DNA of 54,463 bases. Origin: a virus (Duplodnaviria > Caudoviricetes). This document shows positions 14,189 through 24,084 of this stretch, piece after piece. Made by a program: the position numbers and the translations under genes. How positions within the stretch are numbered: the first letter of the stretch is position 1; every line of letters begins with the position of its first letter. The notes below the pieces were generated by a model. That model did not search any database, was not told the DNA's origin, and saw nothing but the letters and a program-made list of their open reading frames with translations. Location of the stretch: positions 1 through 54,463 of IMG/VR virus record IMGVR_UViG_3300043568_000537. The stretch is one strand, 5' to 3'.

Positions 14189-14898
14189 TTGATGAGAGTT
14201 TTTACCATTTCGGTGACGTTAACAAAAAGGTCGTCAAGCGTACCGTTATTGTGTATTACATAATCAAAGTTCCAATCGTCAAGCTCTACCTCAGATACGT
14301 GATTATTTACAGGCTCTAATCCATCACTATGAACCCTTACTACAAACCCATCATAATCTTTAATAGCCTTAGCCTCATTGACAAACCTTGTATCAGTGAT
14401 AATCCAATTAGAATGTGGTATATCCCTACGAGTGTCTCCAACATATCCGGAGAATGCCGTCTTTCTATACTCAGCCATAAGAGCATTAACCCACACATCG
14501 GGATGCAGGTTATTACGCAATGCATCAGTCCCTAGCTTTTGAAGGAACTCTCTAACAGTTATGAGTTGATTGAACTGTATATCCTCAAATGGCGTAATAC
14601 TATTGAGAGGGTTTGTACCAACTGTACCCCACTCATCACCCAATAACGCATCCTTAAACGCTCTATCCTCAAACATCTTCTCACTAATGCCAGTGAGTAC
14701 ACTAGCTACAGCTTTTAACTTACCTGCCCACTTCTTAACCTCCCATCCTGACATATCCTCTAGCATATACATATAGCTATTAGGATGCTTTAGTATCTCG
14801 TGGATAGTCTTGCTATCAATGCCTGACATTGCATACTGCATCATAGTACCTACAGTATCCTTACCCGAATTAGCGTAACCCGAAATTCCTATAATCAT
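14185..14898 (-). CDS. Deoxynucleoside monophosphate kinase
   Basis: IIGISGYANSGKDT P-loop, REFLQKLGTD, IITDTRFVNE, HVSE, IHNNGT. Confidence 0.88.
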   Translation of the reverse strand: MIIGISGYANSGKDTVGTMMQYAMSGIDSKTIHEILKHPNSYMYMLEDMSGWEVKKWAGKLKAVASVLTGISEKMFEDRAFKDALLGDEWGTVGTNPLNSITPFEDIQFNQLITVREFLQKLGTDALRNNLHPDVWVNALMAEYRKTAFSGYVGDTRRDIPHSNWIITDTRFVNEAKAIKDYDGFVVRVHSDGLEPVNNHVSEVELDDWNFDYVIHNNGTLDDLFVNVTEMVKTLIK

Positions 14899-17934: not shown

Positions 17935-17950
17935 GCTATGAGAGTTTTTA

Positions 17951-18967
17951 TTAAAATGGGAAATATGTTTTGTCATCCTTGTGGTATGTCATACAGTACT
18001 CACACATACCATCCTTGAGCTCATGCTCATAGTACTCTATTGCACAATTCCAACAGTCTCTTACCTTCTCACTGCCATATGACTTGCTGTATGTCTTGCC
18101 GTCATAAGACCAACCATCCCAATCATTATAAGTTGTGTCAGCTTTCTTTACACTATCCCAACCACCGTACCAATTACCCTTGCTAGCAGTTGGCTTGGCG
18201 TATGTCTTAGGCGTAAATTTGAACTCATATACCTTAGTGCATGATGACATGATAGAGTATACCATGTTGAGACAGTTCTCTACATCATTGAGGTTAATCA
18301 TCTCGTCATCCATGTGAGGATTGTAATACCCACAAGACATGTTAGCCACACATATACCTACACCACTCTGTGCCAGGGTATACACATCTGTCAGTCCGCC
18401 CGTAGATTCATTGTACCCATAGTTGTCAATGATAGGGGCAATGTCATTGTAGAACTCCTCACCATATAGGTCAGTGCCAAATATGTTATAGACAAAGTCA
18501 CTGTTACCCTTTCTGTCACACTGTAGTATAAACCGACAGTCATTGAAGAATGACAGGTCAGCTACACTACTACCTACACAGCCAACCTCCTCATCTCTGA
18601 AGAAGGCTGCCTTGCAATAATCTAATGACTCCAACATTGATAGGCATATGTATATACCAACCTTGTCATCACCACCTACGCCAGTAGGGCGCATGTTCTT
18701 GATGTCATATGCCATAGCTATGTTGTCATCATGTACCACCATGTAGTCCTGCGTGGGAATTATATCGTGGACAGTATCCGTATGTGATACGATACATGGA
18801 TACTTGCCATCGGTACTTACACCCTTAGTTACGTAGAGGTTGCCCTCATGTAATTCTACATCGTAGCCACGTTCAAGACACTTGTCAAGGATATATTCAA
18901 CCATTGAGTCAGTATTGTAGCTGACAGATTGAATGTTGAGAATCTCAAGGAATTGTTGATTAATCAT
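17951..18967 (-). CDS. M20/M28-family zinc peptidase
   Basis: SHTDTVH, GGDDKVG, DEEVGCVGS, QCDRKG, GLTDV and NMSCGYYNPH motifs; C-terminal CxxC...CxxC. Confidence 0.85.
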   Translation of the reverse strand: MINQQFLEILNIQSVSYNTDSMVEYILDKCLERGYDVELHEGNLYVTKGVSTDGKYPCIVSHTDTVHDIIPTQDYMVVHDDNIAMAYDIKNMRPTGVGGDDKVGIYICLSMLESLDYCKAAFFRDEEVGCVGSSVADLSFFNDCRFILQCDRKGNSDFVYNIFGTDLYGEEFYNDIAPIIDNYGYNESTGGLTDVYTLAQSGVGICVANMSCGYYNPHMDDEMINLNDVENCLNMVYSIMSSCTKVYEFKFTPKTYAKPTASKGNWYGGWDSVKKADTTYNDWDGWSYDGKTYSKSYGSEKVRDCWNCAIEYYEHELKDGMCEYCMTYHKDDKTYFPF

Positions 18968-20321
18968 TGTATACTTCTTTTGTTTCTACATCGCTGTAGC
19001 TGTTTTTTAAATAAAATCTGCCTGTTGTTTTGTCCGACACTGTATCTTCAGTAAGCGCCCACTTGCCATCCACTAACTGAACGCAGTCATCTATCAATGC
19101 ATACTCACCATCATGCAACTCAACTGCATCGTCATATGGTATAGCATCACCATTGACATCCCACACAATGTCATCAACATGGTAATACTCTGAGTGATGC
19201 TCAACATATACTATATGGTCAGAGTCGCTTGCGAAATGCTCACCACGGCTTGGCACATATACTGCGTCCTCGTCAAGCCTCCATCCCTCATATGTCTCTA
19301 CACATCTGTCATGATATGCATAGCCATCAACCCATCTGCCACTGCTACGCCTATAGTCAAGGTGTATAGCATCATCCTCATGTATCCTGTCTCCCGATAC
19401 AATACAAGTAACATGATTGGATGTGTCTTCCCATGAACCATCGGTCTCACGAAGTGTACGATAGTCACTGTTGGGCTCAAAGTTGCACAGCCTACCAGTA
19501 TCCTCACATAGAAACCTAAGCGAATCCATGTAAGGGTAGTAGCTATAATCCCAATTGCGTAGCGTAACACTTACATTACAACCACTACTAACGTGCTTAC
19601 CATTCATCATGTCAAAGTCATGGTGATGGCAAGACTGTGAAGACTTGTACCTCATACCATTACGGATGGCAAAGTCAGTGAAGATTGGCTGTAGGTGTTC
19701 GGCTGCATAGATTGTATCCATACACAGCCCTGTCTTGTCAGTATTCCATATCAATGCCCTGCCTGCAACCTTGTGGTCTTGGTCAATACACACAGCCATG
19801 GATATCTCGTCAGGGTTTTGCTTGTAGATATCAAAGAAGTCACTGTCCGAATGGCGCATACAGCTACCGGAAAGATTACCGCCTGCATGACAACTGTATT
19901 GGTCATTGGCATAGTACAATGGAATAAGACCGCCATTGCATACCACCATTGTAAAGATAGGATCACTACCGCCATCACCATCACCATGCACACCTACATA
20001 TGATGCGACAAGGTTGCTGAACTTCTCATAGTCAGAATCCTTGATAGCAAGGTGGTCTATCAAGACTTGGGGTATAACCTTGCGTATTACCCTGGCAGGC
20101 TTGCCGTCTTGCCTACCATCCCTACTCCACTTGCCGTCATCATTGACCTTGTGCTCTTTACCTGCCGGAAGGAAGGATACCATTCCCCCTCTCATGGTTA
20201 GGTAGTTGACCTCATCAGTCGTACAATTCATCGAATACTTTGTTAAGGCTCTTGCAATGTTACAGTCCAACTGTTCATGCAAGTAAGTGAGCATTGTTTG
20301 GAAACTACTGCTGTAATTCAT
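18960..20321 (-). CDS. Uncharacterised phage protein (SCM...GRALIW...MDTIY core plus acidic C-terminal repeats)
   Basis: 453-aa ORF overlapping the peptidase start; YPYMDS motif followed by short D-x-V repeats. Confidence 0.75.
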   Translation of the reverse strand: MNYSSSFQTMLTYLHEQLDCNIARALTKYSMNCTTDEVNYLTMRGGMVSFLPAGKEHKVNDDGKWSRDGRQDGKPARVIRKVIPQVLIDHLAIKDSDYEKFSNLVASYVGVHGDGDGGSDPIFTMVVCNGGLIPLYYANDQYSCHAGGNLSGSCMRHSDSDFFDIYKQNPDEISMAVCIDQDHKVAGRALIWNTDKTGLCMDTIYAAEHLQPIFTDFAIRNGMRYKSSQSCHHHDFDMMNGKHVSSGCNVSVTLRNWDYSYYPYMDSLRFLCEDTGRLCNFEPNSDYRTLRETDGSWEDTSNHVTCIVSGDRIHEDDAIHLDYRRSSGRWVDGYAYHDRCVETYEGWRLDEDAVYVPSRGEHFASDSDHIVYVEHHSEYYHVDDIVWDVNGDAIPYDDAVELHDGEYALIDDCVQLVDGKWALTEDTVSDKTTGRFYLKNSYSDVETKEVYND

Positions 20322-20343: not shown

Positions 20344-20568
20344 TTAGAGAATCAATTTACTATTTCGTTCACGTAATGCCCTAGGATATCGGTTTTTGTG
20401 AAACCGACGATGAGCGTTTGTCGCGACCTTCGCCATCACAAAGAAGAATAGCAGGTCAACGATTGCCCATCCTAAGTATCGGATGTCAGCTACTGATAGA
20501 ATCAAGAGAATGAATAAAGCCATTCCCGATAGGATGGCCATTGTGTCAAGAAAGTCACGTTTGTTCAT
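20344..20568 (-). CDS. Small 2-TM membrane protein
   Basis: Two hydrophobic helices and a basic tail; TAAATTGC box upstream at 20587-20594. Confidence 0.55.
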   Translation of the reverse strand: MNKRDFLDTMAILSGMALFILLILSVADIRYLGWAIVDLLFFFVMAKVATNAHRRFHKNRYPRALRERNSKLIL

Positions 20569-20695
20569 GTGTGTTGAATTTAGATTGCAATTTAGCAATT
20601 ATTAATGAATAAAAGAAATAAAAATGTATATAACTTGCACAAAAAGGGCTGTGATAATAGCCACACCAATACATAGGGTGATTAACTTCTCTTGT

Positions 20696-20897: not shown

Positions 20898-21314
20898 TTA
20901 ATATTTGAAAGTGATTGATGCGATTCTTTTGCCGTTTACCTTTATGAACCAATCTTCGGGATGGTAATGTTCAAAAGAGTATTCAGCCCCTAATGATTCC
21001 ATCAGTTCCATAAATTCATATCGAGTAGGACAGTCATCGTAAGCATGTATTGATAATGTCCCATCACAATTATATAGGATGTTGGCATTCTCAAAATGAT
21101 TAAAGATAGCCTCTTTTATATCATCATGCTTGTCCATGTTGACCATCTCTGATATTTTCTTGAGTGCATCTACCATCTCATTGTCGTTGTCGTATGGGAT
21201 TGAACGATACCCGCATACTTCTCCATGCCTATCCTCTACCCAAGCAGTAACAACCTTTGACCCTAAGTTTATTGATGCTATAACATCATTGCTGAATTTG
21301 AATTCAAGTTTCAT
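20898..21314 (-). CDS. Hypothetical early protein
   Basis: 138-aa ORF, tightly packed. Confidence 0.55.
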   Translation of the reverse strand: MKLEFKFSNDVIASINLGSKVVTAWVEDRHGEVCGYRSIPYDNDNEMVDALKKISEMVNMDKHDDIKEAIFNHFENANILYNCDGTLSIHAYDDCPTRYEFMELMESLGAEYSFEHYHPEDWFIKVNGKRIASITFKY

Positions 21315-21325
21315 CTCAATTTATT

Positions 21326-21541
21326 TTAGTTTTTAAATTCATATATATCTAAAAGTGCATAGGCGTACTCAAGTACCAAGTACAGCAGGTCAGAGTCTGA
21401 CATTTGTGCTAGCTTTAGGTACTTCTCACCATTTGACAAGTCGCCATAAATATCTAACTTCAATGCAGCGTTGTACAGCTCTTGCCTAACAGATATCTCT
21501 TCGCTTAACCTGTGCTTTACAATTACATCCCTTAATCCCAT
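21326..21541 (-). CDS. Hypothetical early protein
   Basis: 71-aa ORF. Confidence 0.5.
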   Translation of the reverse strand: MGLRDVIVKHRLSEEISVRQELYNAALKLDIYGDLSNGEKYLKLAQMSDSDLLYLVLEYAYALLDIYEFKN

Positions 21542-21542
21542 C

Positions 21543-21725
21543 TTATTTATTATTTACAGATTCTTCAATGGCTGCTGCTATACAGCTGATAACTAAAACG
21601 GCTATTGTGAATGCCCCTCTACCACCATTACCCCAATTGGATGGGTTAGGTACGAATGATATGAAAGCAATTATCAAGTAAAGGGAGATGAGGACAATCA
21701 GTAGGATTGCTATGAACTTATGCAT
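21543..21725 (-). CDS. Small 2-TM membrane protein
   Basis: TM, NPSNW...R, TM pattern. Confidence 0.55.
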   Translation of the reverse strand: MHKFIAILLIVLISLYLIIAFISFVPNPSNWGNGGRGAFTIAVLVISCIAAAIEESVNNK

Positions 21726-21930
21726 ACAACCCCCTTTCTACAGCTTGCATTGCTGTTTTAAGTTCAAATGCCTTGTAGTTTGCCCATGCTTCAGCCAACT
21801 TCTCTTTAGGATCGGTTGCTTCTGACAATTCGTACCACTTGCTGATTAGAGCCTCTGTTGTACTCTTCTTGGCTACCACCACCTTGCCACTATAGACAAG
21901 AGTTGATGTCTTTTTGATTCTACTTCTCAT
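21718..21930 (-). CDS. Small basic early protein
   Basis: 70 aa; ACAACACA before ATG, similar to the start context of 22819-23211. Confidence 0.55.
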   Translation of the reverse strand: MRSRIKKTSTLVYSGKVVVAKKSTTEALISKWYELSEATDPKEKLAEAWANYKAFELKTAMQAVERGLYA

Positions 21931-21982
21931 TGTGTTGTTGTTCAGATGTACTGCTGTCCACCAGTATGTTGATGATTAAAAA

Positions 21983-22028
21983 TAGGTATAGGGTGGGGAG
22001 TTGAACCCCACCTACGACCATCCTATAC
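21983..22028 (-). ncRNA. Minimal tRNA-like element (acceptor stem plus T-arm, no anticodon arm)
   Basis: Minus strand GTATAGG-ATGGTCGTAG-GTGGGG-TTCAACT-CCCCAC-CCTATAC-CTA. Confidence 0.65.
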
Positions 22029-22029
22029 T

Positions 22030-22762
22030 TTTAAAGGTTATTCACGCGTGATTTGTCAGTTATGTAGCAACATCCCGTTGCCCATAGTATTTTACTCCCT
22101 GCTTAATCAACATACAACGCCCACTTATAGCGTTGAATGGCTTTCGTCCAGGAGGGGTCAATTACAGCTATTTGATAGCTACAGCGGACCCGAACCCGCT
22201 TATACACATTTACCACAATCCCTTAAAATGTGCGAAAATTACATGGATTTTCCTTGCAAAAGTATAACTTCACGAAAGGCTTCAACTTAACGCCAATCAT
22301 GTTTCCACCTTGCACCCAAACTGCAAAGCTGTTTATCTCTAATGCCCACTTGGAAATATATTAGTACAGACCCATCCACATTTGGCACAGCATTTCGCTG
22401 TATGTGAATATTGGGTTAAACGTCCTTTGACCTATCAATTTTTGCTACTATTCTACCTTTGCCGTAAACTACATACATTACATGATGTAGAAACATCCAC
22501 ACTAAACTTTCTACATGGGATAGGACTTAACTTCTCGCCCATTATGGGATATGCCCAAAGTTTACTGCAAAAGCTACCAAATAGTTGCAAACATTACCCC
22601 ATACAATGCCTTTCGCTATTGTATGGCTTTTGATAGGCGAAGCATTGCGTAATCCGCCTAATATACGTTTGGCACTCAAATTCCAGGCTACACTAATGTA
22701 CATACTACCCCACCCCCACTTAGGATCGCGGATGATGAGAGTTTTTCGCGGAGGAAAAACAA
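22030..22762 (-). ncRNA. Candidate large structured non-coding RNA (about 730 nt)
   Basis: No minus-strand ORF of 60 aa or more in an otherwise gene-dense block; more than ten local stems plus nested long-range pairings; GAAA-containing loops on the minus strand. Confidence 0.6.
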
Positions 22763-22766
22763 AATG

Positions 22767-22792
22767 AAAAAAGGGGCAGTTATAAGCTGCCC
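22767..22792 (-). terminator. Intrinsic terminator after the first early gene
   Basis: Minus strand GGGCAG-CTTATAA-CTGCCC-C-TTTTTT. Confidence 0.7.
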
Positions 22793-22818
22793 AACCTTGT
22801 TAAGGTATTAATATTAAT

Positions 22819-23211
22819 TTACTTTTTTGTAGCGTAGTAACGCTTGATTAATCCCAATACTAACCAAGTAGAAAAGCCCTTTGTATCGCTGTAAACTATT
22901 TCTTTTTCGTTTCTTAATGGGATTAAGTTTGTAGGGGTTAGGTCTTTTTCATTGTAGTTTTTGAATGAACTTAGGAACTTACCATCTGACAATTTGATGG
23001 CTGTAATACATGAGGAAATTGACCTTAGCTTTAATTTAGCATCCCTATTTTGAACGCTTTTGAATTGTTGTAATTCCCTTCCCGATACATTTTCGGCAAG
23101 GAAAATAATTTTTTCGCTTTTCTTAACAGCTGTTTTTTCGCTTTTCGCTTTGCTGTTTCCTTTCGCTGTTGCTGTTGCTTTGCTGTTTTTTGTTGCTGTT
23201 GCTGTGCTCAT
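22819..23211 (-). CDS. Basic 130-aa protein, first gene of the leftward unit
   Basis: N-terminal repeat ATATKNSK/ATATAKGNSK, Lys-rich, C-terminal FSTWLVLGLIKRYY. Confidence 0.75.
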   Translation of the reverse strand: MSTATATKNSKATATAKGNSKAKSEKTAVKKSEKIIFLAENVSGRELQQFKSVQNRDAKLKLRSISSCITAIKLSDGKFLSSFKNYNEKDLTPTNLIPLRNEKEIVYSDTKGFSTWLVLGLIKRYYATKK

Positions 23212-23300
23212 TGTGTTGAATTTAAAAATTAATGAATAAATGAATAAAAAATATATGTAATAATATACAATTAATGTAGACTGAAAATGAACGCCAATAT

Positions 23301-23495
23301 TTCAAAGAACTTTCGCACAATTCAAAGGGCTTGCCTTGTCGCTGTTGTATGGCATTTCGCCACATATTCAACAGCTATTGAACTACTGAAAAACCAGTTA
23401 ATCGGGTATAAAATTTTAGGCATAGCAATGCCATTACGTTTTCACGTTTCTTTTATTTTTCATACCCTTTAAAGAACTAAGCAAAAATATGCTTA
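23301..23495 (-). promoter_or_regulatory. Structured leader with two boxA-like antitermination sites
   Basis: Hairpin TAAGCA/TGCTTA (23478-23495) then GTTCTTTAAA (23468-23477); second GTTCTTTGAA at 23301-23310; TATCTTCG box at 23499-23506. Confidence 0.5.
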
Positions 23496-23759
23496 CAGCG
23501 AAGATATAATTAATAATTGGATTAATATGTATAATTGTAAAGTATTATTGCAACATTGTTGCAAATATGTAAACTATCTACGAAAACGATTTCGTAAATT
23601 TATTTGGTTATGTCGTTACAATTTTGTAAGCAATTTATACATAATACATTGTACTTTTTTTCTCATGTGGCGAATAGGTAAGGGATGCAAATGTATTGCA
23701 TGGGATAGGAACGCTTCTATCATGTACAAAGTACGCAAACTGAATATCCCACCATAAAC

Positions 23760-23808
23760 AGTCTATTAATTTTGTAGACTAATAATAGTCTATTGATCTT
23801 GTAGACTA
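23760..23808. repeat. Two tandem interrupted palindromes AGTCTA-N9-TAGACT
   Basis: AGTCTATTAATTTTGTAGACT (23760-23780) and AGTCTATTGATCTTGTAGACT (23787-23807). Confidence 0.8.
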
Positions 23809-23871
23809 AGGTACTCGGTTAGGGAGATCCGTTTTCCTGGAATGATCGGGGCGGAAAAAAAAATAGGGGTC

Positions 23872-23919
23872 CCTTACGACATTACACCCCTTATTCATTA
23901 TTTCCTTACGACATTACAC
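23872..23919. repeat. 16-bp perfect direct repeat, 32-bp period
   Basis: CCTTACGACATTACAC at 23872-23887 and 23904-23919. Confidence 0.85.
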
Positions 23920-24084
23920 ACCTATTTTACATATTATACCCCAACCACTTTACAGATTATATACTCTGTAGGAGGTGTATAATATAATTAAGAAGAAAAC
24001 CTCATAACTAACTGACAATCAATACTAGGATTCCCTAATAGGGGGATTAAATCCTTGGATAGGTAAAAAACACTACATTTGGTC

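Follow-up and report, generated by a model that had tools for sequence, protein, structure and literature searches.

A putative family of large ornate RNAs with a tRNA-like 3' module in freshwater tailed phages

Introduction

To our knowledge, few bacterial or phage RNAs longer than 500 nucleotides (nt) have complex conserved folds, namely ribosomal RNAs, group II introns, GOLLD, ROOL, OLE, HEARO and raiA. Recent cryo-electron microscopy structures have shown that large phage RNAs form cages. As described in the available portions of the sources, GOLLD and ROOL are RNAs of phages and prophages to which no function has been assigned, are often found near transfer RNAs (tRNAs), and both form cages; GOLLD combines a conserved 3' region with a 5' region that is less so, and its linker sometimes contains tRNAs, and ROOL is a multi-pseudoknotted RNA of ~580 nt occurring in phages and prophages (bioRxiv 10.1101/2024.12.08.627333; PMC5737381). 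The stretch of DNA considered here, referred to as the window, is the complete virus record IMGVR_UViG_3300043568_000537, a tailed-phage contig of 54,463 base pairs (bp), and the element of interest is a putative non-coding RNA (ncRNA) on its minus strand.

The existence and the fold of this RNA are well supported by sequence comparison, and we lean slightly towards regarding it as the representative of a new family, i.e., a giant ornate ncRNA of ~650-850 nt with a tRNA-like 3' module, carried by a small set of uncultivated tailed phages from fresh water with probably Flavobacteriia-like hosts, which would be processed and would act as a stable molecule in trans. It is laid out as a variable and partly dispensable 5' and middle part (~22746-22342), a conserved 3' core (22345-22045, ~210-300 nt) with at least seven helices and two pseudoknots, and a minihelix (22028-21985). 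An original prediction, made from the window alone, had proposed a large structured phage ncRNA at 22030-22762. Covariation across 10 sequences bears out such an RNA, but the prediction missed the 3' minihelix, the two pseudoknots and the modular make-up, and the element continues ~45 nt beyond the proposed left edge, to 21985.

Relatives of the RNA

Relatives were found via a neighbouring protein of 453 amino acids (aa) and five short DNA patterns. They comprise nine further distinct copies, seven on IMG/VR contigs (L002, L003, L004, L006, L018, L027 and L266) and two on metagenome contigs (L049 and L110), every one of them at the equivalent place in a related phage; together with the window, this gives 10 sequences from about four lineages. 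The last ~290 nt are common to all 10 members and, at the nucleotide level, at least match the neighbouring genes in conservation; identity between the window and L027 is 81.6% in the 3' core and 66-74% in neighbouring genes.

A covariance model was built from the last 250 positions of the alignment, using nine sequences and leaving L266 aside. It gives 203-308 bits for its source sequences, as expected, and finds L266 over its full length with 90.6 bits (E 2.5e-23). In 230 of 266 loci (~1.58 Mb), its matches are family members only, and on five whole records the RNA is present as one copy per genome. A BLAST search with the gap sequence was negative in 50,697 phage records. When prokaryote genomes, one per species, were scanned by pattern, 109 stretches and no family member emerged, as judged by BLAST for 109 of 109 and by the covariance model for 80 of 109 (L231-L259 lay outside the model check). 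At least 120 stretches came from the metagenome pattern scan; four family loci were among the matches listed, two of these being copies of known contigs, and further members may exist beyond those matches. Chance stretches accounted for 9 of 13 with pattern ATCACGCGTGAATAAC and for 11 of 17 with pattern TTTTAAGGNNTTGTGGTAAA. No paper describing this RNA was found in the literature searched, a limited collection.

The conserved 3' core

The helices and pseudoknots of the 3' part, together with its linker, are as follows.

22045-22255, minus strand: conserved 3' core, with helices H2-H6, H8 and H9, then the conserved linker
22252-22250/22236-22234, minus strand: H2, 3' core
22233-22226/22211-22204, minus strand: H3, 3' core
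22200-22197/22186-22183, minus strand: H4, 3' core
22178-22175/22171-22168, minus strand: H5, 3' core
22154-22146/22102-22095, minus strand: H6, 3' core
22135-22129/22121-22115, minus strand: H8, 3' core
22086-22077/22071-22061, minus strand: H9, 3' core
22256-22345, minus strand: variable hairpin H1, differing in size among members and a stub in L006; 10 pairs, six changed on both sides
22249-22245 (AAUCC) with the H3 loop 22221-22217 (GGAUU), minus strand: pseudoknot PK1, paired in nine of nine sequences
22190-22187 (GGUC, 3' end of the H4 loop) with 22159-22156 (GACC), minus strand: pseudoknot PK2, paired in nine of nine sequences
22042-22051, minus strand: 10-nt palindrome UCACGCGUGA in the linker, inside which two RNA-library contigs end, at 22045

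The curated 3' structure, consisting of 77 pairs in 12 helices, was evaluated on an alignment of nine sequences (without L266). Standard pairs occupy 98.2% of 667 cells; sliding the 3' partners by 1-3 columns lowers this share to 36-51%. Changes on both sides are seen in 26 pairs, compared with 2-4 in the slid controls, and none of 500 shuffles reaches any of five measures. In L266, 43 of the 45 model pairs are retained, 20 with both bases changed relative to the window. When L266 is included in a model-based alignment, 35 of the 55 nested pairs are changed on both sides, a count that leans towards the model because the alignment was fitted to it. Both pseudoknots vary while remaining paired: PK1 occurs in the states AAUCC/GGAUU, AAUGC/GCAUU and AACCC/GGGUU, and the variable pair of PK2 is C-G, U-G, A-U or U-A, with GUUA/UAAC read by eye at the PK2 site of L266. 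Whole helices can be gained or lost with the rest undisturbed, as illustrated by a 26-nt hairpin within H4 (L002, L003) and by the loss of H8 (L018), H9 (L266) or the entire middle domain (L049).

Regarding the strand, 655 of the 667 cells pair on the minus strand and 613 on the plus strand. G·U pairs account for 45 cells, some of them invariant, and place the RNA on the minus strand; GC skew and the neighbouring genes agree with this orientation.

The stems listed in the original prediction were all present, since 14 of 14 are fully Watson-Crick complementary, and the loops quoted with them occur in the sequence. Several have to be reinterpreted. In 22234-39/22247-52, three of the six pairs are in competition with the covarying pseudoknot 22249-22245/22221-22217, the fifth pair of 22183-87/22196-200 fits better in the second pseudoknot, 22190-22187/22159-22156, and the 9-bp stem 22485-93/22508-16, complementary as it is, sits in an insertion found only in the window. 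Two further entries, the stem 22634-39/22655-60 and the long-range pairing 22431-38/22630-37, overlap and are mutually exclusive, and covariation backs the latter. This long-range helix corresponds to 22642-22631/22437-22425, within the covarying middle domain.

Three other candidates in this region were tried and set aside. A pairing of 22252-22245 with the linker of the minihelix, proposed by RNAalifold, fails in L003 and L006, and PK1, paired in every aligned sequence, is preferred. The palindrome UCACGCGUGA is invariant in five of the nine aligned sequences, has its first base changed in L049 and is not kept in L027 or L266; in L018 and L110 the linker holds an 8-nt palindrome, AAUUAAUU. 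Homodimerisation via 22042-22051 was dropped as a general feature, L027 and L266 being without a palindrome there. TAnnTTTG is the Bacteroidota-type promoter consensus, and such a box is present at 22264-22257; found in only three of nine members and crossed by RNA-library contigs, it is not called a promoter.

The tRNA-like minihelix

Beside the 3' end of the RNA lies an element with the following parts.

21985-22028, minus strand: tRNA-like acceptor/T-arm minihelix, 44 nt
22028-22022/21992-21986, minus strand: acceptor-like stem, 7 bp
22011-22006/21998-21993, minus strand: T stem, 6 bp, with the loop UUCAACU

In the window, the minihelix has a 10-nt linker containing GG, a discriminator C (21985) and no encoded CCA, and it is followed by a U-rich tail. 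The acceptor stem is paired at seven of seven positions in all 10 sequences, in six sequence variants, and a C follows it in all 10; the T stem is paired at six of six positions in eight sequences and at three of five in the other two. A linker of 8-15 nt takes the place of the D and anticodon arms across members, so that the element is not a tRNA cloverleaf and corresponds to the 'top half' minihelix of a tRNA, with a 7-bp acceptor stem, a T arm and a discriminator base. The T arm is the single site in the window with the tRNA T-loop pattern GGTTCRANTCC. It also gives a weak match to the tmRNA (transfer-messenger RNA) family of Rfam, a 15-nt T-arm fragment at 21995-22009 scoring 12.5 bits against a gathering score of 47; ARAGORN reports no tRNA or tmRNA genes in the window or in nine loci.

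The tail of the minihelix reads UAUUUUU or UAUUUCAU in eight of the nine members in which it is on the contig; L266 has no U tract, and L049 is cut off. The minihelix was not called in a terminator scan of the window. A second minihelix, with 27.8 bits against the covariance model, stands alone between two open reading frames (ORFs), far from the RNA, at L002:5698-5740 and L004:5698-5740; at the equivalent place in the window (~20567-20620) there is none. These standalone copies and the missing U tract of L266 point to a separable module that would be a processing signal rather than a plain terminator, and we infer that it is read by tRNA-maturation enzymes. The standalone copy further suggests that tRNA-like hairpins serve these phages as transcript punctuation, a usage of which no description was found for phages in the literature searched.

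The 5' part and the middle domain

Upstream of the core, the following features can be distinguished.

22735-22746, minus strand: 12-nt motif AAAAACTCTCAT, probable 5' edge of the RNA, with no start codon following
22667-22734, minus strand: 5' leader with the G-rich tract UAAGUGGGGGUGGGG, conserved within the window group, L003 and L006 having a recognisable version
22355-22665, minus strand: variable middle domain, a long arm closed by the helix 22665-22657/22364-22355
22342-22353, minus strand: junction motif CCAAGUGGGCAU, in all members; its AAGUGGG also occurs in the 5' leader and the H8 loop

The interior of the middle domain contains long-range helices (22642-22631/22437-22425) and hairpins with 5-nt G-N-A-A-N loops. 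On five sequences, RNAalifold gives 53 pairs, of which 18 are changed on both sides; paired cells make up 91.8%, a share that falls to 33-44% on sliding, and none of 500 shuffles does as well. The 5' and middle part is common to the window group (L004, L002) and homologous, with covariation, in L018, L027 and L110; it differs in L003, L006 and L266, and ~330 nt of it are missing from L049. At the junction, GGGCAU (22347-22342) has two possible partners, the 3' side of H1 or GUGCC at 22676-22672, both invariant.

Three exact copies of AAAAACTCTCAT are found on the minus strand (14192-14203, 17938-17949 and 22735-22746), the first two lying 3 nt before the ATG of an ORF. The copy at the RNA is a candidate for a 5' leader element, a promoter-proximal box or a module boundary. 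In L006 (~7407-7315, minus strand), and also in L003, the differing 5' part includes a frame of 30 codons that would encode a hydrophobic peptide; in L018, L027 and L266 the nucleotide motif CUUUGACAUAUUG inside it is preserved but the frame is not.

Comparison with known RNA families

The original prediction found the element reminiscent of GOLLD and ROOL and assignable to neither, and had proposed a comparison with Rfam, including these two families, as a check. At gathering thresholds, Rfam 15 (4227 families) gives no match in the window and none in eight homologous loci; at E<=10, cmscan returns noise and the tmRNA T-arm fragment only, and neither GOLLD nor ROOL. The GOLLD model RF02032 (416 positions; family threshold 150 bits) has no match at E<=10 in the whole record, with five candidates scored. 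The ROOL model RF03087 (threshold 99.1 bits) likewise has no match, a weak test given that the control genomes were silent too.

Several traits are nonetheless shared with GOLLD, which is also phage-encoded, known from lake metagenomes and several hundred to more than 800 nt long. The 3' core is present in all 10 sequences, while the 5' and middle part is absent, different or diverged in L049, L003, L006 and L266. We read the RNA as built like GOLLD, with a conserved 3' core and a variable 5' part, and take this as resemblance, not homology. In contrast to GOLLD, which can hold a full tRNA in its linker, a 44-nt 3' minihelix is found here, and the hosts are probably Bacteroidota. GOLLD is located in phages or prophages, often beside or containing tRNAs; here the location is likewise in a phage, the window and nine loci have no tRNA gene, and a tRNA-like minihelix is present. 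With ROOL (RF03087), the element shares the character of a large, multi-pseudoknotted phage RNA, but the helices and motifs are different and the model does not match.

The 3' end invites comparison with the tRNA-like domain of tmRNA (RF00023), which also has a T arm (loop UUCAACU/UUCGACU), an acceptor stem and upstream pseudoknots. Unlike in tmRNA, where the two ends of the molecule come together to form the acceptor stem, the stem is local here, and there is no ARAGORN tmRNA, no tag frame and no encoded CCA. A tRNA-shaped element after a long RNA and before the next gene is likewise seen in MALAT1-mascRNA and in mitochondrial tRNA punctuation. Both of these are eukaryotic or organellar and involve fuller cloverleaves. 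Here, by contrast, acceptor and T arms only are present, in a phage. Such tRNA-like processing is the working model that we propose for 22028-21985, with cleavage as a putative step. Candidate intergenic motifs from IMG/VR, tRNA-like ones and terminators included, were collected by Fremin et al. (CSBJ 2023, PMC10690425) in 8495 models which, in the portion of the paper available, are 29-151 nt long. None of these can therefore equal the whole RNA described here, while fragments of it could be among the candidate motifs of PMC10690425 and PMC5737381, as far as the accessible parts of both go.

The gap and its coding capacity

The RNA lies in a gap of 888 nt (21931-22818) bounded by minus-strand ORFs at 22819-23211 and 21718-21930, within the leftward replication and recombination block, after the first ORF of the block and a terminator and ahead of a long operon. 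The longest ORF on the RNA strand inside the gap has 53 aa. On the plus strand, ORFs of 80 and 83 aa are interrupted in relatives by 1-nt indels, the core itself has 1-nt indels between the window and L004, and no gap ORF is common to the relative groups in a comparison of their ORFs. The 1-nt indels of the core and the lack of a shared ORF argue that the RNA is not coding. The gap claimed by the original prediction is therefore real and has no convincing ORF, but it is less of an anomaly in a packed genome than was proposed, as 23212-24078 is likewise non-coding.

Expression data

At least part of the stretch is present in 21 DNA runs, mostly from lake or river water, six of which contain half of its sampled words or more, and a small share occurs in three freshwater RNA libraries from three studies. 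The RNA-library contigs represent an L004-like variant. Two of them, from two studies, measure 605 nt (22045-22714) and 618 nt (22045-22746) and thus place the 5' and 3' domains on one piece; the third study contributes two shorter contigs. Two contigs from different studies both stop at 22045 without a loose end, at a point where a DNA run continues, 16 nt before the minihelix and inside the 10-nt palindrome, which is a weak hint of a real end. At the other side, the end of one contig, 22746, coincides with the first base of AAAAACTCTCAT. Three observations were not used as evidence: X23 and X24 are without cover at 20900-22027, the X22 RNA contig has a depth of 15.6 against 2.6-5.9 for its neighbours, and letters resembling an Illumina adapter follow 22714 in the X22 contig, whose bearing on the strand would depend on the library type. 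Neither missing cover nor contig depth is a basis for ranking or excluding expression.

Interpretation and alternative explanations

By analogy with GOLLD and ROOL, the RNA would accumulate as a stable, trans-acting molecule. The minihelix may be read at its 5' side by host RNase P and at its 3' side by RNase Z, or by exonucleases together with the CCA-adding enzyme, and such processing would set the 3' end of the RNA and free the downstream messenger RNA. As a guess, the mature RNA could be a scaffold or a self-assembling particle that engages the host translation or tRNA machinery. Somewhat short of an even chance is given to a more ambitious version, in which the RNA represents a new class of giant ornate RNAs in Bacteroidota phages, unrelated to GOLLD, ROOL and OLE, which would be made early in infection, be matured by host tRNA-processing enzymes via the tRNA-like module and work as an RNA machine or self-assembling particle, possibly with the upstream basic protein. 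If this were true, large phage RNAs with an attached tRNA-like module would have at least three separate origins, suggesting a common task linked to tRNA or translation. An independent family would offer a new comparison point for the function of giant phage RNAs, with the same build, phage home and tRNA-like attachment and with a different fold and host phylum. It would also be experimentally tractable, having a small core (~210-300 nt), two well-supported pseudoknots and a candidate processing site, and appearing in public metatranscriptomes.

A number of points weigh against a stable, trans-acting RNA of a new family. As the 10 sequences stem from about four lineages, the counts of changed cells repeat inherited changes, and structures derived from the same alignments are favoured over the slid controls. 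Folding energy, which the original prediction had proposed to compare with shuffled sequence, does not set the minus strand apart from its shuffles, either over the whole 861 nt (z -1.43, equalled by 1 of 20) or in the 3' core (z -1.61, 14 of 200), and the plus strand folds better than the minus strand (z -4.92, 0 of 20). That check succeeds for the middle domain (22340-22680; z -4.17, 0 of 100), and an arbitrary cut at 22263-22560 gives z -0.13. Folding energy alone is a weak, mixed test, and comparison with relatives, in which strong covariation was found in the 3' core and the middle domain, a check that the original prediction had also proposed, is decisive; it was relied on because shuffles of the G+U-rich minus strand fold well and minimum-free-energy folding ignores pseudoknots. 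As for the transcript, neither its strand nor its ends nor its level can be read from contigs, DNA may be present in RNA libraries, and diverging strains could have broken the assembly at 22045, which would account for the shared stop. Upstream of 22746, no promoter could be recognised. Cleavage by RNase P and RNase Z, CCA addition, stability and action in trans are all steps that we infer. Finally, a position directly upstream of an operon and a U-rich stretch after the minihelix in eight of nine members also fit a cis-acting leader.

Such a leader would control the early replication and recombination operon by attenuation or processive antitermination at the minihelix and U tract, perhaps with the upstream protein, or would act on translation of the next ORF. 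The setting between a terminator and the first ORF of a long operon, the U-rich tail, the constant adjacency of the gene for the upstream basic protein and RNA-library contigs that stop before the ORF all speak for it, but a length of 650-850 nt with a dispensable 300-nt domain is far above that of known leaders. Moreover, a U tract is lacking after the minihelix of L266, the two contigs end short of the minihelix, by 16 nt, rather than beyond it, the second minihelix of L002 and L004 stands without any leader, and no alternative terminator/antiterminator pairing was found, the sole candidate (22252-22245 with the minihelix linker) failing in L003 and L006. We therefore hold a cis-acting leader to be unlikely. 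An even less probable view takes the locus as a replication element, i.e., an origin region with a folding transcript or single-stranded DNA, for instance a primer RNA. Although it lies among genes for a primase/helicase, an annealase and an exonuclease, and base pairing would be kept in single-stranded DNA as well, the 45 one-strand G·U cells (some invariant), the GNRA-type and T-loop motifs and the coverage of the RNA by RNA-library contigs argue otherwise, and iterons or an AT-rich unwinding segment are missing inside the RNA, such features being found in 23212-24078.

Returning to the family question, a highly diverged GOLLD or ROOL, for which the Rfam models would be too narrow, seems very improbable. 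The lake-phage context, the size, the conserved 3' and less conserved 5' parts and the tRNA-like link are the same, as far as described in the accessible portions of the sources (bioRxiv 10.1101/2024.12.08.627333; PMC5737381), but RF02032 does not match at E<=10 with five candidates scored, neither family appears in cmscan at E<=10, and the ROOL search was empty, a weak result since the controls were silent. Hardly any credence is given to a minihelix that is left over from a tRNA or tmRNA gene, or that is an attP core derived from a host tRNA gene, with decayed coding sequence around it. The canonical T loop and the weak tmRNA T-arm match would be explained in this way; however, both acceptor strands covary in six variants, where an attP core needs the 3' strand only, ARAGORN finds no tRNA or tmRNA, the 8-15-nt linker is too short for a D or anticodon arm, there is no integrase among 38 scanned ORFs (part of all ORFs), and the upstream part shows covariation, not codon-like conservation. 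Among these explanations, a new family of large phage RNAs with a tRNA-like 3' module is the one preferred here.

Host and neighbouring genes

The plus strand of the record encodes the terminase large subunit, the portal and virion proteins, and the minus-strand block comprises a primase/helicase, a PD-(D/E)XK nuclease, a Rad52-like annealase, a deoxynucleoside monophosphate kinase and an exonuclease. Of 85 phage records with a relative of the terminase (29-30% identity), 84 are from phages of Flavobacterium, Cellulophaga or Maribacter. A Shine-Dalgarno-like motif precedes only 1 of 40 ORF starts, upstream regions are 49% A, and several plus-strand genes are preceded by TAnnTTTG-like boxes. 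The scarcity of Shine-Dalgarno motifs and the terminase relatives suggest that the host is probably a Flavobacteriia-like member of the Bacteroidota.

The RNA is flanked by the following features.

22819-23211, minus strand: upstream ORF P0001, 130 aa, with a Lys/Ala/Thr-rich N-terminus (predicted disordered) and a helical C-domain
22774-22792, minus strand: intrinsic-terminator-like hairpin just past the upstream ORF, with a 6-bp stem (five GC pairs) and a following T run
21718-21930, minus strand: downstream ORF, 70 aa, the first gene past the RNA, starting 54 nt beyond the minihelix and conserved in relatives

A homologue of P0001 adjoins the RNA upstream in every relative with that side on the contig; P0001 is 31-40% identical to its counterparts in L266, L006 and L018, and a homologue is also present in L049. 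The AlphaFold2 model has a predicted local distance difference test score of 72.6. P0001 has no Pfam or PHROG family, no fold match in the PDB (best E 2.7) and no usable match in the ESM Atlas, and a search of viral contigs for its relatives returned none. Proteins of this family are candidate partners of the RNA. The 5' end of the gene holds a low-complexity GCAACAGCA-type repeat (23165-23205), which draws contigs of many unrelated organisms and so produces a false depth peak. Eight of the 10 ORFs around the gap are without a Pfam or PHROG family, and the neighbours give no functional lead. The 453-aa protein (18960-20321, minus strand) occurs in all relatives with 44-79% identity and invariant Cys and His; it has no relative in Pfam or PHROG, nor in the PDB by profile search.

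The terminator-like hairpin at 22774-22792 shows compensatory changes in L004 and L002. In other members, the terminator after the upstream ORF (L003:4010-4032, L006:7511-7533, L027:12149-12188 and L018:9806-9857) is a G-rich hairpin with a T-loop-like loop (UUCAACU/UUCAAUU), then a U run, and this phage group seems to employ the T-arm shape again where transcripts end.

The second large non-coding stretch, 23212-24078, is 867 nt long, has a GC content down to 0.28 and lies between divergent gene blocks. It contains two pairs of tandem repeats, one of 26 nt (23757-23782 and 23784-23809, each with an internal inverted repeat) and one of 20 nt (23872-23891 and 23904-23923), and looks like an operator/promoter or origin region.

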